This document shows, piece after piece, positions 20,789 through 51,592 of a stretch of 64,000 bases of DNA. Location: assembly GCF_022846255.1 (NCBI RefSeq), contig NZ_AP025682.1. One strand, given 5' to 3'. The DNA is from Escherichia coli. GTDB lineage: Bacteria; Pseudomonadota; Gammaproteobacteria; Enterobacterales; Enterobacteriaceae. The notes under the pieces were generated by a model that was not told where the DNA came from, did no database searches, and saw nothing but the letters and a program-made list of their open reading frames with translations. The stretch's first letter is position 1. Each line of letters starts with the position of its first letter. The position numbers were made by a program, and so were the translations under genes.

Positions 20789-20798
20789 ATTCCGAAAC

Positions 20799-34963: not shown

Positions 34964-35685
34964 ATATTAATTATCCCGTTGTATTTAAGGCTATTTTATC
35001 AAAATCATTATTGAAGTACCATCATTAATACCATCATAGGTATTGTTCTCCTTTGGCAACAGTTCTTTGATATCGAAATACTTTAACGAACTTTTTATGA
35101 CATCATACTTTGAAGAAAAAATCACATACTGATTTTCATCCAGTACATCTTGCAAGACAAGGTATAAAACAGGGACTACGATTAAAAATAGCAAAGTCAT
35201 TCACTAAATGAATTCAAAATCAGTGATGTTCTTATCTGCAAGAATATAATATATTTAAAAGATTATAAGCAATATATAAATAATAATATAGCTTTAAAAA
35301 AACACACATGAATTAGAAGTTAAATACATTAATTAAAGAAACAAATAAGTAAGAATTTTGTTTTTAAATAACTCATGCAAACGCATCGTTTATTTATATT
35401 AAAGGAAAATGATGAAATCCAATCTAAATTTAAATAGCTACATTACAAACGAATAGAAAAAGAAGCATTTTCCATGTTAAACTACTATCTTGGTGAAGAC
35501 AGGGGGTATAGCCTTCTGCGGTAGCCTACGCTCTTCGAATGCAAAGCAAGAAAATAACCTTTATAATCAAATTGTTATGCAATGCGCTTGTAGAGCAAAG
35601 GTATCTTAAACGAATAGGTTTAACAGTTAAAGCCTCTTTACATAGGCTGAACAAGGGCAGTACTTGAAAATGATAAAATTGGGGT

Positions 35686-37371
35686 ATGTTTAAAATTATG
35701 AATGCCCATAGTTTAGAGATGAGAAAAGAGTTAGGAGCATATTATACTCCAAGTGCTCTTAGTCAAGTGATGTCAGATTGGGCAATTAGAAGACCAACTG
35801 ATAAAATACTTGAGCCAAGTTTTGGAGGCTGTGGCTTTTTAGAAAGCTGTGAAAAGAGCCTCATGGAGATAGGCTGCATAAACCCAATGGAAAATTTATT
35901 TGGGGTTGATGTAGACCAAAAAGCCTTTGATACTCTCAAAAAAAAATATGGGCATTTATTAATAAAAAAACATTTCATTTTAAGTGATTTCATTAACGTA
36001 TTTCCAAAAGATTTTGGCATTGAAGATTTTGAGGTTATCATTGGGAACCCTCCTTATATCTCTATGCATAATATGAGTTATGAACAAAGGAAGTCCTGTG
36101 AAAAAGTTTTTGCTGACTCACCTTTTAAAACAAAAACATTAGGACGCAATGCAAGTCTTTGGGGGTTTTTCTTACTCCATGCATTAAGCTTCATTCGAGA
36201 AAATGGACGAATAGCGTGGGTATTACCGAGTAGTTTTTTAAATGCCTATTATGCGAAAGAGCTTATAAGAATTTACAAAAATCATTTTAACCATCTAAAA
36301 ATAATAAAGATAAATGAAAGACTTTTCAAAAATGAAGGTGCCGATGAAATGTCAGTACTTTTTTTATGCGATGAGTTTCACAGGACACCTATCAATAATG
36401 GATACGTTTCAATTGGATTTGCTGACACATTAAATGAACTAACCAGCATAATGACTGGAACTAAAGAAAACAAATTAAATAGCTCTGAAAATTACAAATA
36501 TAATATATTAGATATTGACACATTAAATGTGATATCGTCTATAACAGAACATAAGTACAGTTTAAAAATACAGGATATTGCTGATATAAAGATTGGGATG
36601 GTAACCGGCATGAACAACTTCTTTATATTGGATCAAAATCAAATTTTAAAACATAATTTAGACAATAAACATTTTAGACCAGTTATTTCACGATTTTCAC
36701 ATTTGAAGGGAATTCACCACACATTAAAAAGACATACGAAGTTAATTGCAGACAATAAAAAAGGATTGCTATTACACGTCAGTCCAGATGATTTATATGA
36801 AAAACATAGTCCGTTGAGAAAATATTTATCACAAGTTGATAGAAAAGAACGAGTCAAAAACCGCACATTCAAAAAACGAAAAAAGTGGTTTCAACCAGAT
36901 GATGGTATTTACCCAGACGCATTTTTTTCATATATGGTTCATGAGTTTCCCAGAATGATATTAAATAAAGGGAAAGTTAACTGCACTAACTCAATACATC
37001 GTATCTTTTTCAAAGATATAGCATCTAATAAATTAAAAAAAGCATGTTGCATATCTCTTTTATCAACATTTTCACAACTTTCTGCCGAACTTGAAGGTCG
37101 GTCATATGGCTCAGGTGTGCTAAAAATAGAGCCTACCGCAGGAAAGAACATATCATTCTTAATTAAAGATGATTTAATACACGAGTTAAGCAACTTAAGT
37201 AAAGAAATAGATCAATTGCTTTTAAATAATGAAACAAGCAATGCCACTGCTTTAGTTGATAAGTTTTTTGTTGATAAGGGACTAATTAGCTTAGATGAAT
37301 TGAAAAGTCTTAAAAAAGGGTTATTCAGATTAAGAAAAGATCGATATAAAGGGGTCAAAAATTATGAGTGA
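35686..37371 (+). CDS. N6-adenine DNA methyltransferase (Eco57I-like gamma-class) with C-terminal extension
   Basis: Motifs GAYYTP, ILEPSFGGCGFL (motif I-like) and IIGNPPYIS (motif IV, approx 36044-36060); 561 aa; first gene of a tightly overlapping four-gene operon. Confidence 0.8.
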   Translation: MFKIMNAHSLEMRKELGAYYTPSALSQVMSDWAIRRPTDKILEPSFGGCGFLESCEKSLMEIGCINPMENLFGVDVDQKAFDTLKKKYGHLLIKKHFILSDFINVFPKDFGIEDFEVIIGNPPYISMHNMSYEQRKSCEKVFADSPFKTKTLGRNASLWGFFLLHALSFIRENGRIAWVLPSSFLNAYYAKELIRIYKNHFNHLKIIKINERLFKNEGADEMSVLFLCDEFHRTPINNGYVSIGFADTLNELTSIMTGTKENKLNSSENYKYNILDIDTLNVISSITEHKYSLKIQDIADIKIGMVTGMNNFFILDQNQILKHNLDNKHFRPVISRFSHLKGIHHTLKRHTKLIADNKKGLLLHVSPDDLYEKHSPLRKYLSQVDRKERVKNRTFKKRKKWFQPDDGIYPDAFFSYMVHEFPRMILNKGKVNCTNSIHRIFFKDIASNKLKKACCISLLSTFSQLSAELEGRSYGSGVLKIEPTAGKNISFLIKDDLIHELSNLSKEIDQLLLNNETSNATALVDKFFVDKGLISLDELKSLKKGLFRLRKDRYKGVKNYE

Positions 37372-39673
37372 AGATATTCTTTTTTTGAAGGATAAGATGA
37401 AAGCCCTCCTGGATAATGAGGCTCTCGATTATGATAAAGTATTAGAAACAGCAGTAAAAATCACCGAAAAAGACAACAACAATATTAGATTTTCTGTAGA
37501 TGCGAATTTAGTTAGAAGATTAGGTGAGCAGTTAGTCGCTAAAAAAACTACTGCTGTCAGTGAATTGGTGAAAAATGCTTATGACGCAGATTCGACATTA
37601 GTAAATGTATATTTCGAATTGAACGAAGCAAATCCTCGAATAGTCATATTCGATGACGGCACAGGTATGTCAAAGGAAGATATTATCAATGGATTCATGC
37701 GAATAAGCACAAGTGAAAAAGAAGATAACTCTGTTTCAGAACGATATCAGAGACTAAGAGCAGGTAGAAAAGGTATTGGGCGTTTTTCTACACAGCGATT
37801 AGGAAATTATTTAAAAATAATTACCAAGCAAGAAAATGAAGAGTTAGGATATTTAATAGAAATTAACTGGCAGCAGTTTTCAAAAAAGAAAAATATATCC
37901 TTCATTGCTAACACTATCTCAAAAATCGATGTGGATTTCATTCATGGAACAAAAATAATAATAGAAGATCTGAATGATAAAGATTGGTCTGATGGGAACA
38001 TAAAAACGGCTTATAAATATATTAAGAGCATTATAAATATTGCCCCAAGCGAGACAGATCCAGGTTTCCAAGTAAAGTTCTATTATAAAAATGCCAATGG
38101 CTATGAATTAGTTGCAGATGAGAAAACTGAAATTTTTTCTGATAGTGATGCTCATATTACAGCAACACTTGAAAATGGAAATGCTGTAGTGAGAGTTAGC
38201 AGTGAAACCCTTGGCATAAAAAATGAAAGCATAGATGTATGGTATGATGAAAAAAATAACATACGAAAATTCTCACATATAAACTCTCCAGTAAAGCTTG
38301 ATGCATACTATTTCTCATTAGCAACAGTTAACTCCAGAAAACAAGCGGCATATTTACGTGAAAATGGCGGAATAAAAATCTATCGAAATGGATTCAAGGT
38401 TTCTCCTTATGGAGAGCAGTATGATGACTGGACGGCTCTTGATGACTCGGTTCGAAGGAGAAAGATATTACCCCCTCATGGTAATCAAAACTTCTTTGGA
38501 CACGTCAAAGTTGAAGACCTAAATGGAATAGACTTTGAAGAAACGTCCTCAAGGGAAGGTCTGATTCATACCGATGCCTTTCAAGAACTTCGCCTCTTTG
38601 TATATAAAGCACTGACGGCTGCGGTAATAAGAATTAGTGAAGCCAGAAATATAAAAATAAATCCAAATGACCGTAGCTATGTTAAAGAAACTAAACCAAC
38701 AATATCAGTCAAAGATAAATTAAATATTGTATCTGAAACGATAAGCTCGGTTAGTAAATTGGTAGATGCAGCAACATCTGTTGATGACGTTTCAAGTGAT
38801 GGTGTCATTAATAACATTGAAGATAAAAGTATAAGAAACAAAATTATTGAAGATCTCCATGAAGCCGCAGATGAGCTAAAACAAGCGAGTGTGATATCTC
38901 AATCTTTAATCGATGAAATTGAGCTTCTTAGAGTGCTTGGCGCTATGGGCCTTGCTATTGGTGAGTTTACACACGAAATAAATTTATCAATAACAAGTTT
39001 GAGTATTAACGTTCAAAACCTTAAACAGTCTAAATTATTAGAGGAAGATAGAGACTCTGCTCTAAATAGCCTTGAAAATAATATTGCAACATTAAAATCA
39101 TTTACTAAATTTTTTGACAGTACTATACGTGAGAATGTAAACAGAAATAAGAAAGTTATTGAGATAAGAGACTCTATTGAGCCATTTTATGAATCGATGA
39201 AACCAATAATAGAACGCAAAGGAATTCAGTTTGCAATACATTATGAAGGTTATGAACTTTTTACGAAGCCGATTCATGTTTCAGAGCTATATTCTGTATT
39301 TATAAATCTCTTTACGAATGCATATAAAGCAATACTTCGTTCTGGAACAAATCCACGAAAAATGTCTTTAACTGCGAAAAAAGATAGTGAAGATATAATT
39401 ATCCGATTCGAAGATAGCGGTGATGGAATTGAACCTGCAAATAGAGAAAGAGTTTTTGAGCCTTTCTATACAACAAGTACACCATCAGGACCTTTTGAAA
39501 GTGATGATTTATCATTAAAAGGAATGGGATTGGGGTTATCAATCGTACGTGATCTCGTTGAATCCATGTCTGCAGAAATATCTATAGTTGATGCATCCGA
39601 TGGTTTTACAACGTGCTTTGAGTTGAGAATTCCAAAAGCTGATGATAAGGAAATACCAGATGACATCTATTAA
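37364..39673 (+). CDS. Dual Bergerat-fold ATPase: N-terminal MutL/HSP90/MORC-like GHKL module plus C-terminal histidine-kinase core (HisKA-like H-box + HATPase_c)
   Basis: N-terminal motifs ELVKNAYDAD (approx 37562-37591), DDGTGMS, GRKGIGRF; C-terminal H-box GEFTHEINLSITSL (approx 38961-39000), N-box LFTNAYKAIL, G1 EDSGDGIE, F-box FEPFYTT, G2 GMGLGLSIV; no obvious TM segment; start overlaps MTase stop by 8 nt. Confidence 0.7.
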   Translation: MSEDILFLKDKMKALLDNEALDYDKVLETAVKITEKDNNNIRFSVDANLVRRLGEQLVAKKTTAVSELVKNAYDADSTLVNVYFELNEANPRIVIFDDGTGMSKEDIINGFMRISTSEKEDNSVSERYQRLRAGRKGIGRFSTQRLGNYLKIITKQENEELGYLIEINWQQFSKKKNISFIANTISKIDVDFIHGTKIIIEDLNDKDWSDGNIKTAYKYIKSIINIAPSETDPGFQVKFYYKNANGYELVADEKTEIFSDSDAHITATLENGNAVVRVSSETLGIKNESIDVWYDEKNNIRKFSHINSPVKLDAYYFSLATVNSRKQAAYLRENGGIKIYRNGFKVSPYGEQYDDWTALDDSVRRRKILPPHGNQNFFGHVKVEDLNGIDFEETSSREGLIHTDAFQELRLFVYKALTAAVIRISEARNIKINPNDRSYVKETKPTISVKDKLNIVSETISSVSKLVDAATSVDDVSSDGVINNIEDKSIRNKIIEDLHEAADELKQASVISQSLIDEIELLRVLGAMGLAIGEFTHEINLSITSLSINVQNLKQSKLLEEDRDSALNSLENNIATLKSFTKFFDSTIRENVNRNKKVIEIRDSIEPFYESMKPIIERKGIQFAIHYEGYELFTKPIHVSELYSVFINLFTNAYKAILRSGTNPRKMSLTAKKDSEDIIIRFEDSGDGIEPANRERVFEPFYTTSTPSGPFESDDLSLKGMGLGLSIVRDLVESMSAEISIVDASDGFTTCFELRIPKADDKEIPDDIY

Positions 39674-40763
39674 CCTACTTTATATCGATGATGATCAGCC
39701 TCAGCAAGTAAAGGGTTTAATTGAAGCAATAATCAGTAAAGCGAGTTTTGATTTAAATATAACTCATAAACCGCCGACGAAAATGAGTGAAATAGCCATA
39801 GAGTTGAGACAAGGTTATGATGGTATCATCATAGATCAAAAACTTGACAGCTTTGTTGAGGGAGTAGAACCAGTTGATTACTTTGGTGCCGCGTTAGCAC
39901 AAAATTTGCGAACACTCATGGCGGGTAAGTCAGATAATATATCTTATAAGCCAATAATTTTACTCTCTCTCGAAAGCTTATTAATTGAATATTATAATCC
40001 CGATTCAAGCTCGCATGATCTATTTGATTTAGTTTTGAGTAAAAGCATATTAGAACAACCAGAATTGTTAGAAAAAAAAGTTCACTTAATAAAATCTATT
40101 GTGAATGCTTACAAACGTGCACATTCGGAAGACTCGTTATATCAATTGCTTTCTCTGAGCAGTAATTATTCATTGCTTGATAAAAGATTTGAAATATATA
40201 TTTCTCAGTATGATAAAGATATACATAAGCTCGTCACATCCATACACTCCACACTTCTGAGAAGTAGTGGCATGTTAGTTTCTGAGATAACTTTGGCAAC
40301 CAGACTGGGTATTAATATTGAAGAATCGCCAGACTGGCACCAAGTAATTGGGCACCTTGAGGAATATAAATACAATGGCATATTCTCTGATTATTATAAA
40401 AGATGGTGGTGGGCAGATGTAGAGTTGTGGATAAATAAAAAGCTTAACTGCCCAATAATTAAAGGATTAACCTCAGAAAAAAGAGTGGAGATCATCAAAG
40501 AAAAACTTGGCTTAGAACGATTGATGCCAATTCATAGCGTACATCCAGGCCAAAGCACCAAGTTTTGGGTTAATTGTATCATCAGTAAAGAACCTCTTGA
40601 TACAATAGATGCTCTTCGTGCATCATCTATGGAATTAAAACCTTGGGAAGATGATAAATACCTTTCAATTAAAACAGTGTTAGAGAGACGGGCCGAAAAA
40701 TATAAAGTACATCCAGAAGATAGAACAAAATTGGATCGAATTCGGGCGAGGTTTAAATTATAA
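39642..40763 (+). CDS. Receiver (REC)-like domain protein with unassigned ~250-aa C-terminal domain
   Basis: CheY-like pattern: LLYIDDD (beta1, acidic pocket), GIIIDQKL (candidate phospho-acceptor Asp), KPIILLSLES (beta4 Ser); divergent REC, so call is tentative; overlaps kinase gene stop. Confidence 0.5.
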   Translation: MIRKYQMTSINLLYIDDDQPQQVKGLIEAIISKASFDLNITHKPPTKMSEIAIELRQGYDGIIIDQKLDSFVEGVEPVDYFGAALAQNLRTLMAGKSDNISYKPIILLSLESLLIEYYNPDSSSHDLFDLVLSKSILEQPELLEKKVHLIKSIVNAYKRAHSEDSLYQLLSLSSNYSLLDKRFEIYISQYDKDIHKLVTSIHSTLLRSSGMLVSEITLATRLGINIEESPDWHQVIGHLEEYKYNGIFSDYYKRWWWADVELWINKKLNCPIIKGLTSEKRVEIIKEKLGLERLMPIHSVHPGQSTKFWVNCIISKEPLDTIDALRASSMELKPWEDDKYLSIKTVLERRAEKYKVHPEDRTKLDRIRARFKL

Positions 40764-41506
40764 TGAACAATAATACAACTTTGTTAGACGATATGTGTAG
40801 GCTCAGGGACTTTTTATATGATAGCCGCATATGCCCAGATATTAATCCTCTCAACCGTTTAATCAGTAAACTTAATGCAAATCTCCACTCCGAAACAGGG
40901 GAGGACTTTGAATACTCTTTAGACGATTTAGTATTTTATCTTAGCGAAAAATCTGGAACAATTTGTCCGACCCAAATTACACCCAAAGAAAACCCTATTG
41001 AAATACATTTGGAACTTATATTAAAAAGTGAAGGCCCTTATGAATTTTCGAAGATTAAAGAACTTTCAGGGCAATTACGACTTAAAGCTGAGTGGATCAA
41101 TGACACAACAGAAAAAATTGAGATAAAAACATCACATAGTGCTTGGCATTTTGATTATCATGTTCCTCAAATGGGGGATGGCGTAAATTCATTTACTCAT
41201 CCTCAATTCCATTTACAAAATGGAGGAAACAGGCTGACTGATAATTTAAATGACTATGGAGAGTTAATGATTCTTGATGCTCCAAGACTACCTTTACCTC
41301 CTATGGATGTGATATTAGCCATTGACTTTATTATTTCAAATTTCTTTGGTTCTATTTGGCAACAAGCATTATGTGATTCAGAATACATTGATGTAGTTAA
41401 AAGAGCACAAAAAGCATGGTGGAAACCTTATTATGAAGGTATAAGTCAACACTGGTCTGGCAATGGCTCAGGAATATCCAATATCCTAATTCCAAACCTT
41501 CTGTAG
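40763..41506 (+). CDS. Hypothetical protein (247 aa), fourth gene of the operon; possible effector
   Basis: ATG overlaps preceding stop (ATAATG); His-rich segment HFDYHVPQMGDGVNSFTHPQFH; no confident motif. Confidence 0.6.
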   Translation: MNNNTTLLDDMCRLRDFLYDSRICPDINPLNRLISKLNANLHSETGEDFEYSLDDLVFYLSEKSGTICPTQITPKENPIEIHLELILKSEGPYEFSKIKELSGQLRLKAEWINDTTEKIEIKTSHSAWHFDYHVPQMGDGVNSFTHPQFHLQNGGNRLTDNLNDYGELMILDAPRLPLPPMDVILAIDFIISNFFGSIWQQALCDSEYIDVVKRAQKAWWKPYYEGISQHWSGNGSGISNILIPNLL

Positions 41507-41771
41507 TGTATCAAAATCTGTTAACCATCTCCAATTACGAATAGCAATATTTATATAAAACTAATTTTTTATTTTAAACAACTTCAGCAAGGGCTAACTC
41601 TCAGCATCTCCTTCGGTGATACTTTGAGTTGCTCCTTGTTTTTTCGCCCTTTGGTTGAAAAAATTAAAAGCAAAACCAACCCTATACATTGACTTTTTCA
41701 GCATCTATCATATAAATAAAATAAGCATAATGGACATGCTTATTTTACTTTACTATATGAAAGGAGTTCAT

Positions 41772-42185
41772 ATGAATGATAGGAATCATACTTTTAATAA
41801 GTTCGAGCCATTCAGAAGTTGTAGCTATGAAAATTTTACTTCTGCTAAAACACTCTCCCAGCAGACACGTTCTCATTGTATTAGTATCAGATTAAATGAT
41901 GCCGAGTTATCTTACGTTGATGGCTTACGAGAAGATCTCAACCGTGCTGTTTGGATACGTATGTCAGCATTGAATCGTCTCCCTTCCAAAATTCCTGAAA
42001 TAAATCTAATTGTCTGGAAAGACCTTGCCAAAGCATCTCAGAATCTGAATAACCTCGTTCAGCATCTCAACACTAAATCACACGATAGTCCTTTTACTAT
42101 CACCGAAATTTATACGGTACAAAAAAGAATAAAAGCACTAAGAGATGCCCTTCTGTCAGCAAATCGATCTGTCAGTGATAAATAA
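41772..42185 (+). CDS. MobC-like mobilization accessory protein
   Basis: Strong RBS aaggag 5 nt upstream of ATG 41772; small basic protein with ribbon-helix-helix-like segment (CISIRLNDAELSYVDGLRED); stop overlaps relaxase start (TAATG). Confidence 0.55.
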   Translation: MNDRNHTFNKFEPFRSCSYENFTSAKTLSQQTRSHCISIRLNDAELSYVDGLREDLNRAVWIRMSALNRLPSKIPEINLIVWKDLAKASQNLNNLVQHLNTKSHDSPFTITEIYTVQKRIKALRDALLSANRSVSDK

Positions 42186-43372
42186 TGAAAGGGATGCAAA
42201 AAATCCGCAGAGGAAAGAGTTTTGCTGGTGTCGTCCTCTATGCGTTAAAGCCCGGTTCTCATCATAAAAAAGACCCTATCGTGATCGGTGGAAATATAAC
42301 GATAGTTGGCAATGCCGCTAAAGATCTGATCGCTGAATTTGATAGCACCAAACAGCTTCGCCCTGACGTGCAAAAGGCTGTTTGGCACAACTCGCTTCGC
42401 TTACCTAAAGGTGAATCACTAACGGCTAAACAGTGGTCTGAAATAGCAGATGATTACATGTCCCGCATGGGCTTCTCTGAAACGCATCTCAGATGCTACG
42501 TCCTACATGACGACGAAGATGGCCAGCACATCCATATCATCGCCAGCAGAGTGTCTCTTGATGCCGGAAAGCTCTACCTCGGCAGGAATGAGAACCTGGC
42601 AAGCACGAGAATAATTCAGCAACTTGAAAGAAATTACAATCTGACAAGAACCAAAGGGCCAGGAGCTAAAGCATCTACATCTTCTCTTTCCTCTAAACCG
42701 AAACATAAAAAATCACGTAATGAGGCTATGTTAGAGGAGAGAACTGGTGAACCATGCCCTAAATCCATCATCCAAAGGGCTATAGATTCGATAACATTAA
42801 ATCCTATAGCAATTGATGACTTCGTTGAAAAGCTGAATAGCATAGGGATTACGGCGAAAAGCAATATTTCTTCAACTGGCAAGATGAATGGATTTTCCTT
42901 TGAATGCAAAGGTGTTGTGTTCAAAGCTTCCCAGCTTGGCAAGAAGTATAGTTGGAAGAACCTGGAATCAATGATTTCAATGAATTACAACTCACACATT
43001 GGTGATGAAAAACCTGTCATCCCTGAACCTGCTGCCCATCGCAGCAACGAAGCTGTCATACCTATAGTGGAAGACTATTCTGATGAAAAGATTTACCCTG
43101 AGATAAGGGTACCCTTACCAAGACCTGACACAGCGCCCACAAAACCTACAAGCATGACAATGCGTTGGATCGCAACCATACCTTATCTTGTGAGTGTTAT
43201 TAGCGCACTTAAAACGATGCGTATCCCCTTTCTAAAGGCGTTCAATGGCCCAAGGAAGTTCTTTTCCGTGTCCATGATTCACCTGTCCTCTGTAAGCCTG
43301 AAACAGACCAAAACGAATAATTTCAAACCAAAAAGTTCCCACCAAAAGGCCCACAAGCCCCTTCTCCCCTGA
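42185..43372 (+). CDS. Mobilization relaxase (MobA/VirD2-like)
   Basis: Relaxase histidine triad region HDDEDGQHIHIIASRV (HxH motif), N-terminal nickase-like domain; coupled to the MobC-like gene. Confidence 0.65.
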   Translation: MKGMQKIRRGKSFAGVVLYALKPGSHHKKDPIVIGGNITIVGNAAKDLIAEFDSTKQLRPDVQKAVWHNSLRLPKGESLTAKQWSEIADDYMSRMGFSETHLRCYVLHDDEDGQHIHIIASRVSLDAGKLYLGRNENLASTRIIQQLERNYNLTRTKGPGAKASTSSLSSKPKHKKSRNEAMLEERTGEPCPKSIIQRAIDSITLNPIAIDDFVEKLNSIGITAKSNISSTGKMNGFSFECKGVVFKASQLGKKYSWKNLESMISMNYNSHIGDEKPVIPEPAAHRSNEAVIPIVEDYSDEKIYPEIRVPLPRPDTAPTKPTSMTMRWIATIPYLVSVISALKTMRIPFLKAFNGPRKFFSVSMIHLSSVSLKQTKTNNFKPKSSHQKAHKPLLP

Positions 43373-43580
43373 TTTCTCCACAGATAAACGATCGTTATAA
43401 TCGATCGATTTATTTATATTGATAGTCAATAACAATCAATAGGTAAATAATCGATCGGTACAAGCAATTTGCTATGTCCTTAGAAGTGTTCAAAATGTAC
43501 TTTCATGCATAAATCGGATAATAGGTTGATTTTACTAGCCTATTTTTCTATCCACGTATCGAACATGCAGGGACTGAAGT

Positions 43581-44171
43581 ATGAGATATCTCATGATGAA
43601 GCGTGTAATGTTAGCAATCCTTCTTCCGTTTATTGTTGGATGTTTATTTGGTGCTAAAGCATTATCAGAGTATTGGGTTGTGTGGTTTTTTGTTTGTGCA
43701 ATGTTGATGATCACAGCCTGGGGCGTGTGGTTAAAAAATAAAAACAGAGGTTCCAGCTTCAGCTACCTGAATGATAATGAAGATGGTGTATTTATCTACA
43801 AATTTCATAATCAAGAGATGCGTTTAGATAAAGCCAAAAAAGAGCTTTATTTAAAAGATGGGTTAAACGAAAAAACCTACACTTTTTCCGATGTTGAAAG
43901 CTGGGAATATAAAATTAGCACAGGTGGTCAGATCCTCACTTCAGGTCTTAACCCTACAACTAACTTGATTAACAATAAGATTCTTGGTGAAAACATTAAT
44001 GACACCGGCTTCTTTATCAAAGTTAAAGACATCAGAAACCCTGAGTGGCATATTCGATTCTTCCCTCAAGAAGGATCTTATAAAGATCAGAGGGGATTAA
44101 TTAGCTTAAAAAAACAGATGATGCAGTGGATGACCGTTTTTGACTTAATCGTAAATGCTGATACAAAGTAA
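43581..44171 (+). CDS. Hypothetical inner-membrane protein (two predicted TM helices)
   Basis: N-terminal hydrophobic segments (VMLAILLPFIVGCLFGA; WVVWFFVCAMLMITAWGVWL) then soluble domain; function unknown. Confidence 0.6.
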   Translation: MRYLMMKRVMLAILLPFIVGCLFGAKALSEYWVVWFFVCAMLMITAWGVWLKNKNRGSSFSYLNDNEDGVFIYKFHNQEMRLDKAKKELYLKDGLNEKTYTFSDVESWEYKISTGGQILTSGLNPTTNLINNKILGENINDTGFFIKVKDIRNPEWHIRFFPQEGSYKDQRGLISLKKQMMQWMTVFDLIVNADTK

Positions 44172-44182
44172 GGAAAACAAGA

Positions 44183-44473
44183 ATGAAAAAAACCATGCTA
44201 CTATTATTAGCTTCAATGTCGCTGACAGGTTGCAACAGTGAACCATCCGATGCAGATATTTCAAAAGCCATGCAGAGCTTTATGAGTGAGATGCATGGTA
44301 CCCTGAACTCGTCTAAAAAACTTGCGTGTAAAGATATAGAGAGTGATGGCAGTTATCTCTGCTCTGTAGAGTTCGATGCTAAACTTCCAATCGTGGGCCA
44401 TAGAGAATCGACGCTAGAATTAAAGTTTATTAAATCCGATGACTCCTGGAAAGCAATGGCTCCATCTAAATAA
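44183..44473 (+). CDS. Small lipoprotein (96 aa)
   Basis: Signal peptide with lipobox (LLLASMSLTGC); 11 nt downstream of the membrane protein gene. Confidence 0.6.
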   Translation: MKKTMLLLLASMSLTGCNSEPSDADISKAMQSFMSEMHGTLNSSKKLACKDIESDGSYLCSVEFDAKLPIVGHRESTLELKFIKSDDSWKAMAPSK

Positions 44474-44566
44474 ACTTAATTATATTTGACAATAGAAAAA
44501 TAGTACGTCATAGATAGTAAATTGATAACAACCAGTGGGTTGAGCCACTGGCTGTTATCCCAATGG

Positions 44567-44644
44567 TTAATACACGGATGTACTAACCACCATTAAAAGG
44601 ATAAACAACATCACCTTTAATGCACGGGAGCGTTTTTTAGACAT
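44567..44644 (-). CDS. Unannotated 25-aa hydrophobic peptide (MSKKRSRALKVMLFILLMVVSTSVY); type I toxin-like small ORF
   Basis: Minus-strand ATG with GGAG 6 nt upstream; basic N-terminus then a single hydrophobic helix; a 14-bp imperfect hairpin (approx 44524-44558) lies just downstream. Below the ORF-track length cutoff. Confidence 0.3.
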   Translation of the reverse strand: MSKKRSRALKVMLFILLMVVSTSVY

Positions 44645-44730
44645 ACGCCACTCCTTCTTTTTCATCATCAACCTTATTGTTGGTGATGTTGCCTCTTTGG
44701 GCTGATGCAGATTATCATTTTAGAATACTA

Positions 44731-44756
44731 AAAGCATCCTTTCGGATGCTTTTTTT
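44731..44756. terminator. Bidirectional intrinsic terminator
   Basis: aaagcatcc-tttc-ggatgcttt hairpin flanked by an A-run upstream and T-run downstream, between convergent/adjacent transcription units. Confidence 0.6.
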
Positions 44757-44850
44757 CGCCTTGAAAATATTAGCAAGATAATAATCCATAAAGGATAATA
44801 TAAAAACCAAAATAATATGCTACGGTAGTTGTTATAAAAATCACATAAAA

Positions 44851-45273
44851 CTACAGTCCATATTTTTTCCTTTTATCCTTCATCAATAATTCTCTTTTTA
44901 GGGTAGAAGCCTCATGTTTCCTTCTCTCATTAATATAGACTTTTTCGGTTCTACTACCATTGCTCACAATGAAATTGATAAGTGAAGAGCATACGTTTTT
45001 CATACGCTCTTTATCGAGCATGTCATTTTCAATATTATTGATATTGCAGTAATAAGAAAGTAGTAAAAAATTCAACACTACTTCCCTGTTTGAGAACGTT
45101 AGTTTTTCTATTTCAGGCTGGTATTTAATGTAGAACCCGGCACAAAACAGGTATGATTGTTCGATAATTTGTTGCTCTGAGAAGTCTGATTCAGAGAGTT
45201 TATCAACGAATCGATCAAGTAGAAGAAGATACCTTTCCATCAAATGAATATTTATTTTTTCCATAACATGCAT
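44851..45273 (-). CDS. Hypothetical protein (140 aa)
   Basis: ORF in AT-rich island cargo downstream of the recombinase operon; no motif recognised. Confidence 0.5.
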   Translation of the reverse strand: MHVMEKINIHLMERYLLLLDRFVDKLSESDFSEQQIIEQSYLFCAGFYIKYQPEIEKLTFSNREVVLNFLLLSYYCNINNIENDMLDKERMKNVCSSLINFIVSNGSRTEKVYINERRKHEASTLKRELLMKDKRKKYGL

Positions 45274-45357
45274 CCTTGCAATTTATTTTGCCATCCTGAC
45301 AATTAAATAAATACCATAATTATTAATCACGTCAATAGTTAAAACCTATCTATTTTA

Positions 45358-45756
45358 TTAAAGGTATTTTGCAGGTAACGGATTATTAAGTTCTTCAATC
45401 GTTATTTGTTTAAGGTGAGCATTATAAAGCCATACTTTGAACTGCTCTAAATAGCGTTCATTTAATGCCTTCAAAGCCTCATTTTCTGCTTCAAGTCTTC
45501 TAATTCGTTGAGAAGCCACTTTTAAATTAGCAGGTTTTACAGTATGTATTGCACCAGATTTGATAGTGGCCTTTTTCACACTGAAGCTTTCTGCAATCCT
45601 TACATGACTACTTAAGGATTGTCTTGATGGTCTTTTCCCAATAATCCTTACTAACCTGTCGCACAAAGCATCCCAGGTTAGTTTTTCATCTATAGACCAT
45701 GTGTTAATAACATCTACAATCTTCTTCTCATGATAACCATTTATATGCTTAGCCAT
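45358..45756 (-). CDS. Small basic coiled-coil protein (132 aa), accessory gene of the recombinase operon
   Basis: Starts 1 nt after the stop of the 543-aa recombinase; heptad segment RIRRLEAENEALKALNERYLEQ. Confidence 0.55.
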   Translation of the reverse strand: MAKHINGYHEKKIVDVINTWSIDEKLTWDALCDRLVRIIGKRPSRQSLSSHVRIAESFSVKKATIKSGAIHTVKPANLKVASQRIRRLEAENEALKALNERYLEQFKVWLYNAHLKQITIEELNNPLPAKYL

Positions 45757-47388
45757 TTATTCTCCTTTTTTTATTCTCTTATGGAATTCATACCATCTAT
45801 CAGCATTTATGTTCCCATCATTTTTATCATACAGTGTTCTTTTTGAAATTTTATCGTGAATTTTTGAAATCGTTTCGTTATCTAAACCAGAATTCTCAAT
45901 CGGATAATGTTCACACGGCTTAAACGCATATGAGTGCTTGCAGTAGCCATGTTTTGATACCAGTACTGCACCACTACTAAGTGAATCAAACTCATTAAGA
46001 ACCACCACTGGAATATCCTTTATTCTGTGCTCATTAACACACACTGATAACTTTTGTTCTCTTATTGCTTTAGACATTTGAAGATGCGATCTGTGGTCAT
46101 AAGAAAAATTTTGAGAAATAAGCTTACGTCCAGACCAGCGAGCAATACTAAACTCATCCATACCATTTATTTGAGCAAAAGTGTTGAGAAGATGCCTCAG
46201 TTGATGTGTTCTTAGCAAATATGGGCTACCATCATCATTTATATAACCATGTCTTTTAAATACATTTAAATATCCTTTTATATAATCAGAATCAACGATA
46301 TCAGTTTTAAAAAAATTCGTTGTAGGTCTGAATAACTTATCTAACATTTCCTTTTTATTTTGATTTAACTGTCCTTCAGTTAACAAGCAAAGCGCATTAG
46401 AATATTTGATTTTCTTCTCTCTATCATACCAAAAGAGATCTGGAGGTATATTTTCTTTAAGGGTTCCCATCGTTGAATTAGAGTAATTCTTTTGAATTTC
46501 AGCAGCCAATAATCTCGCTTGACTTGATAATTCTTTTAATCTGCTAATAGCCTTTTTTGCTACAGGTATCATTAAAGTTGGAATCCATTTTATATTGCCT
46601 TCATACCCTTTTGCTGAAAAAAATCTTAAACCGTATCTTTGAATGCCCTTTCCATCACATTCTGTAATTTCACAATCCACTGGCAAAGCTAAAATTTCCG
46701 ATATCCTACTCGGTGCACACATAAGTAAAGCAAGCACAGATGTAGTAAATATATCTCTTGACGATAATTGTTCATCCCGCTTTGAAAAAATCTCAGCAAT
46801 CGCAATAACTGATTTGATATCAGGCAATCTAGAATGGCCTTCCAGTGAAGAATCATAACCAGTCCAAGACTGAGTAATCCTATACCTAATTGGACTTATC
46901 CAAAATAAATAAGATGAGTTAGTCATCCTATTATCATTTAAAAATGAACTCAATTTCTCAAGTTCTTTCCCAATAGCAAATGCATGTGCTTTAGAATACT
47001 TTTCAGAGGCTATCCTTATGCATTCATCAAAGATTGAATTGTTGCAATAGTTTACATTAGCTTCCATATTGATTTTAAGTAAAACGAATTCGACAATCTT
47101 CAACATTGATAATGTTGAGTGTTTCGTCTTAGATTTATTGAATGAATGCACATGCAACATATATGCTTTAGCAAAATTAATAAAGCTATCATCTAAGCAT
47201 TCTTTGCTGTTTAGGTTGTTTTTTGAGTTAAACTTAGTAAACCTATATAAACCTTTCCATTTATTGCTTTCCCAAGAAGTTGTTAAATTATTATTAGAAA
47301 TAGTACTCTTACAAAACTCGATGAACTTAATAACATTATCGTGAGGGTTGTTTTTATTGCTTGGTTCAAAAATAAATATATTGTTCAT
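45757..47388 (-). CDS. Tyrosine recombinase (543 aa), third of three tandem recombinases
   Basis: Catalytic-region motifs PSRISEIL (box I Arg), HQLRHLLNT (HxxR), downstream Tyr region; 4-nt overlap with the upstream recombinase gene. Confidence 0.65.
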   Translation of the reverse strand: MNNIFIFEPSNKNNPHDNVIKFIEFCKSTISNNNLTTSWESNKWKGLYRFTKFNSKNNLNSKECLDDSFINFAKAYMLHVHSFNKSKTKHSTLSMLKIVEFVLLKINMEANVNYCNNSIFDECIRIASEKYSKAHAFAIGKELEKLSSFLNDNRMTNSSYLFWISPIRYRITQSWTGYDSSLEGHSRLPDIKSVIAIAEIFSKRDEQLSSRDIFTTSVLALLMCAPSRISEILALPVDCEITECDGKGIQRYGLRFFSAKGYEGNIKWIPTLMIPVAKKAISRLKELSSQARLLAAEIQKNYSNSTMGTLKENIPPDLFWYDREKKIKYSNALCLLTEGQLNQNKKEMLDKLFRPTTNFFKTDIVDSDYIKGYLNVFKRHGYINDDGSPYLLRTHQLRHLLNTFAQINGMDEFSIARWSGRKLISQNFSYDHRSHLQMSKAIREQKLSVCVNEHRIKDIPVVVLNEFDSLSSGAVLVSKHGYCKHSYAFKPCEHYPIENSGLDNETISKIHDKISKRTLYDKNDGNINADRWYEFHKRIKKGE

Positions 47389-48710
47389 AATGCTCTCCAG
47401 GGATTGAATTTTTTACACGTTAAGCATTTCAAATCCTCTTTCGTATCTTCTAATAAGAAAAATGCATCTGAAACATACTTGATAAAAAAGTTCTTGTTTT
47501 CTTCAATCTCTATGCCCATAAGTATATTAGATAAGGGGTTAAAAAACGCACTTAGTCTCTTATCGATGTCATAAACGTTGTCAGGATTGTTTTTTATATA
47601 TATCATAGAAGAGTTTACTGATTTATGATCTAAGGCTTTAGCAATCACCTCAATTGAGGCTCCTTCGTTAGCCAGTCGACTTCCTAACGTATATCTGAAT
47701 CTTCTAGCATTAAGTTCTATATAGCTGTTAGTCCTTTCTGACCTAACATCGAATTTTGACGGAAAGTGTTTTAATAGTTTTGACATAACTGAATTTTTCA
47801 TATGGAAAAAATCTGTTGTTAAATCAGATAAAAAATCCTCAATCCTTTTTGTTTCCGTAATCTTATCTAAATTCATGAAGATTGGTAATTCGCCTCTATA
47901 GTTATTAATCCCAACACTGAATTTATCTTCAACAAACGCCTGATTTTGATTAATTAGCATTGATAAACTGTCATATAAGAACGGTTCTATCATTACCATA
48001 TTAAATTCTTTTCTGAAACATTTTCTTTGTTTTACTTTTGGTACATTCAAAAAGCACCCTCTCTCATTTTTAATGAGATCTTTAGCTTTTAGAGATATCA
48101 ATTGTAATGGCCTTCTTCCTGTTATTGCCAGCAAAAGGATATAACAATACAAAAAGCATTGAATTTTCTTCTCATGATAAAATTTTCCAACGGCGTTAAT
48201 AATGTTATTGAATTCCGTTTCAGTTAAAGGTCCTTTATTTGGATCTCGTCTTTTAACTGCATCTCCTGTTTGGTTTGGAATGATTTTTATTTTCTCCAGC
48301 ATTCTAATGGCAGTCGCATCTACCCCAGGGTAATTGAGATTTTTCCATTTAGTGATGAAAGCCTTAATTGAGTTTAGTTTGTAGTTTCTTTCTGAACCTA
48401 AATAAACATTCAATTGATATATTGCTTTGTCATCAATAGTATCGATGGTCATTGCACCAAACCACTTATAAAATAGATTGTTAATATTTTGTATATAAAA
48501 AGAACTATATTCAGACGCATAGTAAGCTAATGTTTTTAAGTAGCTAAGTTTCATTTTTGTAGGCATTCTATCTACAACTTTATGAGGGTATACGCAGTTT
48601 TCTTTATCAAGTTGCCATTTCTTATCTGACAGTTTGAAACTATATCTATTCATCTTAGCAAAAAAAATTTGCTCACTTTCAATACATTTTATTTCCACAT
48701 TAAACCCCAC
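47385..48710 (-). CDS. Tyrosine recombinase (441 aa), second of three
   Basis: Motifs ITGRRPLQLISLK (box I Arg), RFRYTLGSRL and LDHKSVNSSMIY (box II); overlaps neighbours at both ends. Confidence 0.65.
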   Translation of the reverse strand: MGFNVEIKCIESEQIFFAKMNRYSFKLSDKKWQLDKENCVYPHKVVDRMPTKMKLSYLKTLAYYASEYSSFYIQNINNLFYKWFGAMTIDTIDDKAIYQLNVYLGSERNYKLNSIKAFITKWKNLNYPGVDATAIRMLEKIKIIPNQTGDAVKRRDPNKGPLTETEFNNIINAVGKFYHEKKIQCFLYCYILLLAITGRRPLQLISLKAKDLIKNERGCFLNVPKVKQRKCFRKEFNMVMIEPFLYDSLSMLINQNQAFVEDKFSVGINNYRGELPIFMNLDKITETKRIEDFLSDLTTDFFHMKNSVMSKLLKHFPSKFDVRSERTNSYIELNARRFRYTLGSRLANEGASIEVIAKALDHKSVNSSMIYIKNNPDNVYDIDKRLSAFFNPLSNILMGIEIEENKNFFIKYVSDAFFLLEDTKEDLKCLTCKKFNPWRAL

Positions 48711-49905
48711 TAATTATTTTACTTACTGATTTATAGACCTTTAGGACGACATCCTTCTCTTGTTGGGATATATATTTAAAATTGTATCTATTACACATGA
48801 TTGACTCCTTTGACCAACCCATTAGATAATTCCTTAAATCTTTCCTTCTACTATATTCTAATTCAGCGCCTTCAATTCCTTTAGAATACATATAATTCCA
48901 AGAGTGCCTTAACCTATGACCTGAAAGATTATATAGCTTTGGACTTGCTCGTTTCAGTGTTGATATCACCTTCTCATAAGCTGAAATGCTTAAGGGTTCT
49001 CCTGCGTTTTTTCCGGTGCAATGAGCCACGAATAAGAAATTATGTTTTTTCCTTTTTGTCATTTTTTCCCTGCTATTGCTTATGTAATCAAAAATTTCAC
49101 TGGCTAACTCATCAGATAACGGAATAACCCTTTCTCCAGTCTTTACTAATGGCTGATAAGCTCTTCCATCTTCTTTTGAATCATGTCTTCTGACTACACT
49201 TAAAGTGTTGTCTCTGAGATCAAAATCATCTATTTTAAGATTGAGCAACTCTCCAGCCCTTAAACCTAAATTTAAGAGCAAGGTAAATATTAGTCTGTTC
49301 CTGACCTGTACTTCCTTATGAAAAGGGTTTTCAATCCCACCAATTTCCAATAGACGGAAAAGCACATTGATCTCTTCTTCATTTAACGATTTTTCAGATA
49401 TTTCATTCATATTCAATGAACTGTTTCTTGGAATATGTGCTCTGATACTTTCAATAAATACTTCTACTTCATACTTTGCATGAATCCCCTTTGACGAATG
49501 AACTAATCCACATAACCACTTAAGGTAGCGTGAAAAAACGTGTACTCTATAACTAAAGGTTCTCTTTGCAATAAACCTATTACTTGCTGATTTTATATTT
49601 ATAATTTTTTGTCTATCGAATCTTTGTTTCGCATATCTTACCAGATCATCTATTTCTGCAACGCTGAGATACTTTTTAAGCTCAATTCTCTCAACTATAT
49701 TAATTTTCCTACTATCTAAGAAATTACTAAAAATTAGTAAGTTAGTTGCAACTATTTCCATAGTTGAGGCGGTTGCGCCTCTATTTCTTATGTCTGTAGT
49801 AAGAAATAGATTTTGATAGTAAGCTGGTAGATTACTATTTTTATCAAGGATCAGGCATCCTCGCTCCCCATTACTCATGATGAATTTCTTTACTTTATAT
49901 CCCAT
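48700..49905 (-). CDS. Tyrosine recombinase (401 aa), first of three
   Basis: Motifs LGLRAGELLNLKIDD (box I Arg), GHRLRHSW (HxxR), LMGWSKESIMCNRY (box II Tyr). Confidence 0.65.
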   Translation of the reverse strand: MGYKVKKFIMSNGERGCLILDKNSNLPAYYQNLFLTTDIRNRGATASTMEIVATNLLIFSNFLDSRKINIVERIELKKYLSVAEIDDLVRYAKQRFDRQKIINIKSASNRFIAKRTFSYRVHVFSRYLKWLCGLVHSSKGIHAKYEVEVFIESIRAHIPRNSSLNMNEISEKSLNEEEINVLFRLLEIGGIENPFHKEVQVRNRLIFTLLLNLGLRAGELLNLKIDDFDLRDNTLSVVRRHDSKEDGRAYQPLVKTGERVIPLSDELASEIFDYISNSREKMTKRKKHNFLFVAHCTGKNAGEPLSISAYEKVISTLKRASPKLYNLSGHRLRHSWNYMYSKGIEGAELEYSRRKDLRNYLMGWSKESIMCNRYNFKYISQQEKDVVLKVYKSVSKIISGV

Positions 49906-51523: not shown

Positions 51524-51592
51524 ATAAATCGCAAATAAAAAAATGGCGTCTCAATTGGTTATTGAATACGCCATTTTACTCATAAAAATCAG

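Follow-up and report, generated by a model that had tools for sequence, protein, structure and literature searches.

We propose that positions 41586-43372 of the window (the whole 64,000-nucleotide stretch of Escherichia coli DNA analysed here) form the mobilization module of an 18-kb integrative mobilizable element (IME), made up of an origin of transfer (oriT), an accessory protein of the NikA/MobC type and an HUH relaxase. We put the probability of this reading at about 0.78. Comparison among related loci strongly supports the candidate oriT, and the functional cis site is predicted to span only about 80 bp (Table 1), narrower than the 265-bp spacer in which the sequence-only reading had placed it.

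Table 1. Features of the mobilization module and of the island that carries it (positions of the window).
Feature	Position	Strand	Details
Integrative mobilizable element (proposed)	34964-53029		18 kb, beside tRNA-Leu
Distal att repeat, copy of tRNA-Leu 3' end	34941-34963		TGGTG-CGAAGGCCGGACTCGAAC
Spacer upstream of accessory gene	41507-41771		265 bp
Candidate oriT block	41586-41665		80 bp; core AGCAAGGGCTAAC first, hairpin directly after
oriT core, proposed relaxase recognition/nick region	41586-41598	-	plus strand AGCAAGGGCTAAC; minus strand 5'-(G)TTAGCCCTTGCT-3'
Hairpin 1, imperfect inverted repeat	41587-41638		arms GCAAGGGCTAACTC (41587-41600) and GAGTTGCTCCTTG (41626-41638), plus inner stem
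T-run and hairpin 2	41639-41665		TTTTTTCGCC CTTT GG TTGAAAAAA; contains CGCCCTT
Probable sigma-70 promoter of mob operon	41689-41716	+	TTGACT, 16 nt, TATAAA; read from sequence
Operator-like palindrome between -10 and RBS	41714-41750		AAATAAAATAAGCAT aatggac ATGCTTATTTTACTT; core AAGCAT-N7-ATGCTT
Relaxosome accessory protein, NikA/MobC (RHH) superfamily	41772-42185	+	137 aa; RBS AAAGGAG 41760-41766
HUH conjugative relaxase	42185-43372	+	395 aa
P4-type tyrosine integrase	51593-52840	-	415 aa; Arm-DNA-bind_3, Phage_int_M, Phage_integrase
tRNA-Leu(CAA), integration site	53030-53114	-	3' end (53030-53053) is the proximal att repeat

The identity of the relaxase is solid, resting on its Pfam match, its invariant catalytic residues and its fold. 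The protein matches PF03432, the MobA/VirD2-like nuclease domain of the MOBP type, with 93.6 bits against a cut-off of 24.6 (E = 1.6e-26; residues 19-153 against positions 1-132 of the 132-position profile), and its fold is that of an HUH relaxase. Y19, H108, H115 and H117 do not vary in sets of 20 and 27 homologs, the most distant of them 35% identical, which points to a catalytic role for Tyr19 as the nucleophile and for the three histidines (HxDx...HxH) as the metal site; the HxH motif noticed earlier is indeed there, in HDDEDGQHIHI. The nuclease domain (about residues 1-157) is followed by a linker, by a second domain (about 175-268) that is conserved and confidently folded, and, after residue 270, by a variable proline-rich C-terminal linker, at the end of which lies a motif common to relatives, RWxxTIPY...IPxLK..PRK. 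A long low-complexity tail, as the sequence-only reading had it, was not borne out: Shannon entropy in 40-residue windows is 3.6-3.8 bits, about equal to that of the catalytic domain. The protein is related to RP4-type TraI and is not an equivalog of it, since the best NCBIfam relaxase model, TraI/MobA(P) NF041893, scored 70.6 bits (residues 8-262) against an equivalog cut-off of 250; the NCBIfam MobQ models gave no match. Searched against PDB sequences, neither the single relaxase nor a 20-sequence profile gave a match, and no solved MOBQ relaxase came up.

The accessory ORF ends in TAATG and overlaps the start of the relaxase gene by one base. Its product matched nothing in Pfam even at E<=10, nor in NCBIfam at E<=0.1. 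Its relatives, 357 at E<=1e-3 (phmmer), are more informative: among 65 sampled, 46 matched the NikA-like family PF21983 (best 4.8e-12) and 29 matched MobC, PF05713 (best 1.8e-8), and the protein is 44% identical (tblastn) to the annotated MobC of the IncQ-3 plasmid pUL3AT. By sequence homology through these intermediates it is assigned to the NikA-like/MobC superfamily, the level at which its earlier description as MobC-like is right. A homolog lies directly upstream of the relaxase gene in nearly all of 48 loci with relaxase homologs. An AF2 monomer model (pLDDT 83) has helices at 43-53, 58-66, 76-102 and 110-135 and an extended segment before the first of them; no strand was called, as expected when a dimeric fold is modelled as a monomer. 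A Foldseek search of the PDB with the model gave no significant match (the best hits were RHH antitoxins, E about 7), and the profile of the protein matched no PDB sequence.

A short repeat in a single AT-rich spacer proves little, so the case for an oriT beyond chance rests on 36 related loci. In about 37 of the 48 relaxase-homolog loci (Enterobacterales, Pseudomonas, Gallionella, Polaromonas and Methylibium), AGCAAGGGCTAAC and a hairpin precede the accessory gene and share its orientation; they occur as a single copy per locus, invariably oriented with the mob genes, in both Gamma- and Betaproteobacteria. A covariance model searched against both strands of 774 kb found one plus-strand site per locus, and nothing else scored E < 0.01 except in five enterobacterial loci, where the palindromic site was picked up again on the reverse strand. 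Within E. coli the block is present in 97 of 5,426 complete genomes, at 105 places that are all chromosomal (0 of 105 on plasmids). Every one of these matches starts at 41586, and at the three further places examined, of types other than the window's, a relaxase gene is adjacent. In the decayed locus KSC1031, whose relaxase gene is a pseudogene, the core and left arm have been lost too. The spacer is AT-rich overall, as first described (30.2% G+C against 43.7% for the whole window), but unevenly so: G+C is 21.5% in 41507-41585, reaches 45.3% in 41586-41660 and falls to 26.1% in 41661-41771. The left part of the spacer is an AT-rich junction without conservation, and the right part holds the probable promoter and an operator-like palindrome. 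When the core, the complementary sequence and the IncQ-3 variant were looked up as text in the literature, only unrelated primer sequences came back. A blastn search of plasmids with the 2.1-kb module returned one 3.6-kb Salmonella record only, covering part of the relaxase; its upstream inverted repeat is a different one, and it has no core.

The core is the conserved part of the block. Pairwise identity over the 36 loci is 95%, with 9 of 14 positions invariant, against 31% (the random level) in the 30 nt to its left, where the DNA is unrelated from locus to locus. The window contains a single exact copy of the core. On the minus strand it reads TTAGCCCTTGCT, which agrees at 10 of 12 positions with the published IncQ-3 oriT core TTACACCTTGCT, a close but inexact match to a core that is itself putative; we observed the latter directly in the pUL3AT sequence. 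Comparison with MOBP and MOBQ origins, as had been suggested, went the other way. The MOBP motif YATCCTGY is absent from both strands within 800 nt upstream of the window's relaxase gene, and across 50 regions (the 48 loci plus L002 and L004) it matched only twice, at unrelated positions. The MOBQ1 core matches at 7 of about 15 positions, and the full MOBQ1 consensus NWACCNNTAAGTGCGCCCTYNN is represented only by CGCCCTT (plus strand, 41646-41652) or AG CCCTTG (minus strand), TAAGTG being absent. The core is not clade-wide, because the motif is wholly missing from a related subfamily of relaxases with 57-60% identity. Homology in all 36 loci begins at one and the same base, 41586 in the window, where the nick is proposed.

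Hairpin 1 folds significantly as single-stranded DNA and its interior covaries. The folding energy is -13.7 kcal/mol for the plus strand (z = -2.9, equalled by 0 of 200 shuffles) and -15.9 kcal/mol for the minus strand (z = -3.2). The inverted repeat caaggg...ccttg that had been picked out from the sequence is present, caagg at 41589-41593 and ccttg at 41634-41638, and forms the outer stem. In 28 non-redundant loci the hairpin begins at AAC directly after the core, and in 24 of these the fold has z < -2; folding with shuffles was used here because counts of contiguous stems run too low for stems with internal loops. Stem pairs in the interior change together (AACTCAGC/GCTGAGTT, AACTCGGC/GCCGAGTT, AACTATCC/GGATAGTT, AACTCGAT/ATCGAGTT, AACCA/TGGTT and AACTT/AAGTT): 94% of cells are paired, and changes on both sides occur in 6 of 8 pairs, counted on an alignment fitted by the covariance model and hence biased towards structure (a MAFFT alignment misplaced the loci with short hairpins). 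None of 500 shuffles scored as high, and slid controls paired at 44% or less.

Hairpin 2 is part of the block in Enterobacterales and was not found in the Pseudomonas and betaproteobacterial loci. It folds in the window by the same procedure, and its stem changes are compensated (TTTTTC/GAAAAA, TTTTAT/ATAAAA, TTTTTA/TAAAAA). Seven loci have cargo between the block and the mob genes with their promoter, over a distance of 0.4-3.7 kb, and there hairpin 2 remains joined to hairpin 1. It may bind the accessory protein or IHF, or act as a terminator; hairpin 1 followed by T6 could also terminate transcription.

The nicked strand is probably the minus strand. On the plus strand the core lies 5' of the hairpin, and beyond Enterobacterales nothing is conserved on the hairpin's 3' side; on the minus strand it is the conserved core that lies 3' of the hairpin. 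Hairpin followed by core is also the arrangement in R1162 (hairpin and nick 8 nt apart), F and R388. RP4 has the core 3' of the hairpin on the nicked strand as well (PMC3772185), and in pLS20 the mapped nick lies in the strand that serves as template for the conjugation genes (PMC5313138). The putative nick would fall 2-4 nt from the stem, or within the outer stem, compared with 8 nt in RP4 (PMC3772185). In Enterobacterales the site is near-palindromic, with AGCAAGG and CCTTGCT on both strands, so that the strand assignment there rests only on the distant loci. A nick in the minus strand would bring the mob genes into the recipient last.

A quite unlikely alternative keeps the oriT in the block and puts the nick on the plus strand, 8 nt after hairpin 1, at TTTTTTCG/CCCTTTGG (41639-41654), a geometry that would copy MOBQ1 (hairpin, 8 nt, GCG/CCCT). 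CGCCCTT equals the final 7 bases of the MOBQ consensus (PMC3832669) and stands exactly 8 nt past the right arm, CGCCCTY recurs at the same offset, on the plus strand only, in 13 loci besides the window, and CGCCCTT is mutated in the decayed locus KSC1031. It is, however, kept only in a subset of Enterobacterales, with CTGCCCTT, CTGCTCT, TTCCTTT or TGCCTTA in its place elsewhere, and nothing like it is present in the Pseudomonas, Gallionella, Polaromonas or IncQ-3 loci; the AGCAAGGGCTAAC core is invariant in all these loci. Variation in this region tracks the stem pattern of hairpin 2, which suggests an element with a structural or binding role, not a nick sequence, and the relaxase is of the PF03432 (MOBP-like) and not of the RSF1010 MobA_MobL type. 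A nick at TTTTTTCG/CCCTTT on the plus strand was accordingly demoted, this part being variable in distant loci and the 5' core conserved.

We also regard it as improbable that the element, real as its sequence features are, is a transfer-dead, decaying remnant. Decayed versions are known, such as KSC1031, in which the relaxase gene is a pseudogene and the oriT is truncated, with core and left arm lost and CGCCCTTTGG mutated; the window's relaxase, at 395 aa, falls 30 aa short of the 425 aa of its nearest relatives; and the RK2 helper mobilized only two of five related IncQ-3 plasmids, failing with the other three (PMC7557826). Yet both ORFs are intact and retain the invariant catalytic residues and the C-terminal motif, 14 other E. 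coli genomes carry an identical block, and the island keeps a full-length integrase together with its two att repeats. The family's presence at several chromosomal sites and in many genera also argues for recent mobility.

Very improbable is a mainly transcriptional hairpin, a terminator that shields the mob operon from upstream cargo, or an operator bound by the presumed RHH protein, with the oriT elsewhere or absent: such a role would suit the T5-T7 that follows hairpin 1 on the plus strand of enterobacterial loci, the position of the hairpin, with a cargo gene ending at 41506 on one side and the mob promoter on the other, and the fact that RHH proteins are commonly autorepressors, but a terminator needs no 13-nt single-stranded sequence conserved across two proteobacterial classes beside a freely varying stem, the T-run is absent from the Pseudomonas and betaproteobacterial loci, a terminator scan did not list hairpin 1, the distance of 0.4-3.7 kb from the promoter in seven loci is unfit for an operator, and the operator position is already taken by a separate palindrome. 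The same core is, besides, called oriT in IncQ-3 plasmids (PMC7557826).

That palindrome is the best inverted repeat of the spacer, with 15-nt arms that are 93% complementary, and a GCATA-N5-TATGC version of it is kept in 20 enterobacterial loci; the presumed RHH accessory protein may autoregulate its operon through it. The promoter hexamers are likewise kept (at least 17 enterobacterial loci have TTGACA-N16-TATAAA at this position). A consensus promoter scanner did not list the window's version because its rule demands T at position 6 of the -10 hexamer.

The module lies in an island with both ends defined. The distal att repeat agrees with the tRNA end at 23 of 24 positions, including an exact stretch of 18 nt. 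The tRNA gene, which we take to be leuX, has ahr, idnK and idnD for neighbours, as in E. coli, and the integrase call agrees with the RefSeq annotation of a 99.6% identical locus. Among island ORFs of at least 100 aa, no type IV secretion (T4SS) or coupling-protein (T4CP) domain was found in Pfam or NCBIfam, an absence that is not absolute because several island ORFs carry no annotation. There is no primase or rep domain in the island, and the C-terminus of the relaxase is unrelated to the RepB fusion of IncQ-3. By its gene content the island would thus be an IME, with integrase, att repeats, relaxase and candidate oriT and with no mating-pore or coupling genes. Pipolins, raised by the literature, were rejected as an identity: they use another tRNA-Leu site and seldom carry relaxases. 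Across genera and at several chromosomal sites, the mob module is linked with a conserved trio of recombinase-like genes.

Taken as the mobilization module of an IME, these parts would work as follows. The P4-type integrase would excise the island as a circle through the att repeats, and the accessory protein, bound to the oriT block, would aid access of the relaxase to the core beside hairpin 1. The relaxase (Tyr19, with His108/115/117 as the metal site) would then cut the minus strand in or near 5'-TTAGCCCTTGCT-3' and keep the 5' end, a co-resident conjugative plasmid or ICE presumably providing the coupling protein and type IV secretion system. The minus strand would move 5' to 3', with the cargo left of 41586 first and the hairpin and mob genes last, and the hairpin would act in termination and re-ligation. 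The promoter and palindrome would drive, and probably autoregulate, the two translationally coupled genes. Since the kit of relaxase, helper protein and conserved oriT is complete, a conjugative plasmid could probably carry the island to another cell.

In its working the module appears to resemble the mob module of IncQ-3 plasmids, yet it is no IncQ-3 plasmid. In pGNB2, pBRST7.6 and pUL3AT (oriT, mobC, mobA-repB) the order and orientation of core, hairpin, accessory gene and relaxase are identical, and the relaxase domain is 37% identical to the window's over 97% of the first 202 residues. IncQ-3 carries GAGCAAGGTGTAACC and a hairpin upstream of mobC; the complement of the former is TTACACCTTGCT, the putative core shared by all 29 IncQ-3 plasmids, some of which IncP helpers can mobilize (PMC7557826). 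On the strand complementary to the mob genes, both cores come directly after a hairpin that ends in the stem bases GGTT or AGTT. IncQ-3 relaxases, in contrast, are fused to a RepB primase on small strand-displacement replicons (repA, mobA-repB), whereas the window's relaxase has a different conserved domain and a variable tail in its C-terminal half, and its module is chromosomal, beside an integrase.

The architecture is also that of the MOBP systems R64 (IncI1; oriT-nikA-nikB) and RP4 (IncP; oriT-traJ-traI): an inverted repeat with a nick region, an accessory gene of the RHH superfamily and a PF03432 relaxase transcribed away from oriT. Relatives of the window's accessory protein match the NikA-like family. 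Those systems differ in having T4SS and coupling genes, a greater distance between hairpin and core, and the MOBP nick motif (C/T)ATCCTG(C/T) about 8 nt 3' of the inverted repeat (PMC3772185). The MobA of RSF1010/R1162 (IncQ-1, MOBQ1) belongs to a different Pfam family and has no detectable sequence similarity to the window's relaxase. About 9 of 11 core positions of its oriT align on the minus strand, but the TAAGTGCG spacer is missing in the window. The accessory gene content and orientation of RSF1010 are also unlike the window's, its mobC being divergent from mobA. The island is like the iMOB IMEs of Enterobacteria in being small (18 kb, against an iMOB mean of 23 kb; bioRxiv 10.64898/2026.01.13.699239) and in having an integrase, att sites, one relaxase, defence cargo and no mating-pore genes. 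SGI1 and the Vibrio MGIs differ, with a tyrosine-recombinase-like relaxase or a mimic of the helper's oriT in place of the window's classical HUH relaxase and its own accessory protein.

E. coli, Salmonella and Klebsiella commonly carry relaxase-bearing genomic islands whose transfer origins are almost all unmapped. A 2026 survey reports that the iMOB elements exceed ICEs in number in E. coli and Salmonella and that their oriTs are mostly unknown and differ from those of plasmids, with known oriTs in almost none of the relaxase-bearing islands and 52 new oriT families proposed (bioRxiv 10.64898/2026.01.13.699239). For one widespread family we now describe a candidate oriT of 80 bp, in which an invariant 13-nt core adjoins a covarying hairpin, predict which strand is nicked, and tie the family to the IncQ-3 mobilization system. 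The element is of an ordinary kind, now precisely mapped, and leaves the understanding of conjugative mobilization unchanged. It makes testable the use of helper plasmids, the occurrence of the core in relaxase-less islands and relaxase-driven exchange at the homology break.

The last of these is an unlikely but specific idea: the oriT core may double as a point of cargo exchange, through oriT-to-oriT strand-transfer recombination catalysed by the relaxase. A fixed start of homology together with varying cargo would follow if co-resident elements swapped whole cargo arms. If true, such exchange would replace ordinary insertion and deletion as the source of cargo change, and the mob module with its recombinase-like trio would be a distinct, chromosome-only, defence-carrying family with its own cargo shuffling. 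The DNA on the leading side holds a different set of defence genes in each of the 36 loci.

The candidate transfer origin (oriT) that the sequence-only reading had placed in the spacer upstream of the mobilization genes is supported by our analysis and narrowed to an 80-bp block beginning at 41586; this putative oriT is of the IncQ-3 type and neither canonical MOBP nor MOBQ1. The spacer had been described as AT-rich, which holds overall (30% G+C), yet it encloses a block of 45% G+C. We compared 48 loci with relatives of the relaxase, taken from species-representative genomes. The accessory gene lies directly upstream of the relaxase in nearly all of them, and in about 37 of the 48 the accessory gene is preceded by AGCAAGGGCTAAC, which shares its orientation and runs straight into a hairpin. 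The loci with this arrangement come from Enterobacterales, Pseudomonas, Gallionella, Polaromonas and Methylibium, and their relaxases are only 33-50% identical to that of the window. The 14-nt core at the left end of the block shows 95% identity between loci, versus 31% (the random level) for the 30 nt on its left. Within E. coli, 97 of 5,426 genomes contain the 79-nt block, for a total of 105 places and none on a plasmid; all of these alignments begin at window position 41586, and the inspected places, at four different chromosomal sites, all adjoin a relaxase. One decayed locus, whose relaxase gene is a pseudogene, lacks both core and left arm.

The caagg/ccttg pair pointed out earlier in this spacer is real: it makes up the outer stem of hairpin 1, an imperfect inverted repeat whose folding, on either strand, is better than that of shuffled sequence. 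The stem always starts at the AAC of the core, and its interior varies by lineage yet pairs (AACTCAGC/GCTGAGTT, AACTCGGC/GCCGAGTT, AACTATCC/GGATAGTT, AACTCGAT/ATCGAGTT, AACCA/TGGTT and AACTT/AAGTT among the loci), with a fold z below -2 at 24 of 28 non-redundant sites. A covariance model made from nine short-hairpin sites recovered one plus-strand site per locus in 774 kb searched, and any further match with E < 0.01 was the same palindrome read on the reverse strand. In the model-based alignment, whose fitting to the covariance model has to be kept in mind when reading the pairing counts, 94% of cells are paired and changes on both sides occur at 6 of 8 pairs; this level of pairing was reached by none of 500 shuffles, and slid controls were at most 44% paired.

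At seven loci the whole block, including the second small hairpin, sits 0.4-3.7 kb from the mob promoter, which argues against a role of the block as an operator. The intervening DNA consists of defence genes or an IS element, and since inserts of this size occupy the same place in seven loci, we read the junction between oriT block and mob promoter as a second cargo slot. The inserts at these loci (L019, L024, L025, L027, L032, L037 and L053, relaxase-homolog loci from other genomes) include a STAND-like NTPase, an HNH effector of an ABC three-component system and an IS3-family element. On the promoter side of the spacer, the palindrome following the -10 hexamer is conserved in the form GCATA-N5-TATGC in 20 loci.

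The sequence-only reading had proposed alignment with MOBQ and MOBP origins as a check. The MOBP nick motif, (C/T)ATCCTG(C/T) (PMC3772185), is absent from the spacer, and the MOBQ consensus NWACCNNTAAGTGCGCCCTYNN (PMC3832669) has a single, partial counterpart, CGCCCTT, 8 nt past hairpin 1. The IncQ-3 core is matched: a putative oriT core, 5'-TTACACCTTGCT-3', is common to all 29 known IncQ-3 plasmids, two of five of which were mobilized with an RK2 helper when tested (PMC7557826), and the minus strand of the window, TTAGCCCTTGCT, agrees with it at 10 of 12 positions, at equal position and orientation. The covariance model itself gave a weak match to the IncQ-3 plasmid pUL3AT, upstream of mobC, where the minus strand reads ...AACCAAGCGAAGCGCTGGTTACACCTTGCTCC; we regard this match as the decisive link to a known system. 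The closest plasmid relatives of the relaxase, after one uncharacterised Salmonella record, are likewise IncQ-3 relaxases (37% identity).

A relaxase subfamily 57-60% identical to that of the window (loci L031, L033, L034, L036, L046 and L054) is without the AGCAAGGGCTAAC core and has instead TAATCTGATA..CC(C)TC, then a GGTATAC inverted repeat, roughly 200 nt ahead of the accessory gene. This different motif beside such relaxases suggests that oriT specificity switched within the relaxase clade.

Which strand is nicked can be approached from the order of the elements. In R1162, F and R388, the transferred strand carries the inverted repeat 5' to the nick. The oriT of RP4 has this same order (PMC3772185). 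In the block studied here, only the minus strand has invariant sequence 3' of the hairpin, and the plus-strand sequence past the hairpin differs by lineage. Because the RP4-like order thus fits the invariant core on the minus strand alone, we favour a nick on that strand, within or next to TTAGCCCTTGCT, with a probability of about 65%. In Enterobacterales the two strands of the site read almost alike, and the stem-to-nick distance that follows from this placement, 2-4 nt, falls short of that in the classical systems. A plus-strand nick at CGCCCTT, the sole match to the MOBQ consensus and our first candidate, is now judged unlikely, conservation of this heptamer being limited to part of the Enterobacterales. 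With the minus-strand nick, transfer would begin with the cargo left of 41586 and end with the hairpin and mob genes.

The two mob genes overlap by one base (TAATG), and the same 2.1 kb occurs at 99.6% identity in one RefSeq genome, strain TUM11353, where they are annotated as 'hypothetical protein' and 'relaxase/mobilization nuclease domain-containing protein'. The relaxase call is confirmed: the protein covers the whole PF03432 profile (93.6 bits), and Y19, H108, H115 and H117 are invariant among homologs down to 35% identity. Its top NCBIfam model is TraI/MobA(P) (residues 8-262), at a score far under the equivalog cut-off, and sequence searches detected no solved structure for it. Beyond the nuclease domain we found a second conserved, well-folded domain (~175-268), then a variable proline-rich stretch and a terminal motif common to relatives; the tail had been called low-complexity, which its entropy contradicts. 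The 137-aa accessory protein has no direct profile match. An exhaustive phmmer search returned 357 relatives, and among 65 aligned, 46 match NikA-like and 29 match MobC profiles, so we assign it, at superfamily level, to the ribbon-helix-helix relaxosome accessory proteins; the label 'MobC-like' stands at that level. In a model of the monomer the expected pair of helices precedes two long ones, and a fold search with this model was uninformative. Numerous homologs of the relaxase (42185-42790) in protein databases are 'partial' entries of ~275 aa that stop where a contig stops; the variable C-terminal region may be a place where assemblies are prone to break.

We assign the window to the E. 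coli chromosome; the flank with ahr, idnK, idnD and tRNA-Leu(CAA) is matched in 5,425 of 5,426 complete E. coli genomes. G+C content is low from ~34 to 52 kb, and a copy of the tRNA-Leu 3' end bounds a predicted island of 18.1 kb. The island has an integrase, a relaxase and a putative oriT, and mating-pore and coupling-protein domains were not found in it; its predicted gene content is typical of an integrative mobilizable element that encodes its own relaxase. A 2026 preprint surveyed elements of this class, whose oriTs are for the most part unknown and differ from those of plasmids, and proposed 52 new oriT families (bioRxiv 10.64898/2026.01.13.699239). The present element is a well-delimited instance of a familiar kind and is mechanistically unsurprising.

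Features of the window, listed from right to left
Feature	Position	Strand	Remark
Intact P4-type integrase, DUF6387 protein, small HTH protein			island right end
Two tyrosine recombinases (401, 441 aa), 543-aa protein, two small ORFs (132, 140 aa)	44851-49905	-	next leftward
Lipoprotein-like ORF (96 aa), DUF4755 protein	43581-44473	+	leftward of recombinase group
Perfect palindrome CGATCGTTATAATCGATCG	43389-43460		directly past relaxase stop codon
Relaxase gene	42185-43372		395 aa; leftward of DUF4755
Accessory gene	41772-42185		137 aa; then oriT leftward
Spacer	41507-41771
Strong ribosome-binding site			spacer, right of oriT block
Palindrome	41714-41750		directly after -10 hexamer; best inverted repeat in spacer
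Conserved promoter TTGACT-16-TATAAA	41689-41716		right of oriT block
A-rich stretch			right of oriT block
CGCCCTT	41646-41652
Candidate nick region, plus-strand alternative		+	5'-GCTCCTTGTTTTTTCGCCCTTTGGTTG-3'
Candidate nick region, favoured		-	5'-CTGAGAGTTAGCCCTTGCTGAAGTTG-3'
Hairpin 1 arms	41587-41600 / 41626-41638
45% G+C block	41586-41660
Left part of spacer	41507-41585		AT-rich, not conserved
Four-gene cargo with methyltransferase	35686-41506	+	island left end
Predicted island	34964-53029
tRNA-Leu 3'-end copy (distal att repeat)	34941-34963		23/24 nt
Truncated P4-type integrase	33949-34818	-
Low-G+C stretch (37-42%)	~14000-24000
Very large ORFs (2,107 and 1,119 aa)	7430-17103

The truncated integrase retains only the Arm-binding and central domains; lying immediately to the left of the distal att repeat, it suggests that an older island had accreted in tandem at this tRNA-Leu site and left a remnant. 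The second low-G+C stretch lies beside the two very large ORFs.

The cargo comprises an Eco57I/MmeI-like N6 methyltransferase (PADLOC MTase_II, 2e-89), a 769-aa protein with two HATPase_c domains, and two further proteins, of 373 and 247 aa, without a family match; together they probably form a defence system or one resembling restriction-modification. In related islands this position is occupied by quite different defence genes (type I R-M; SIR2 with an ABC three-component system; Hxs). Past the relaxase, the palindrome is terminator-like on both strands and has extra AATCGATCG copies close by. The DUF4755 membrane protein and the 96-aa ORF, which has a lipoprotein-type signal (LTGC), both recur 3' of relaxase homologs in several genera. 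The recombinase group, whose 543-aa protein is annotated as DNA-binding, is present although the island has its own P4-type integrase, and is linked to the relaxase module in at least 16 loci of Enterobacterales and also at four distinct sites on E. coli chromosomes. Both tyrosine recombinases weakly match NCBIfam GmtY, the gamma-mobile-trio recombinase (E = 8.6e-5 and 1.6e-5).
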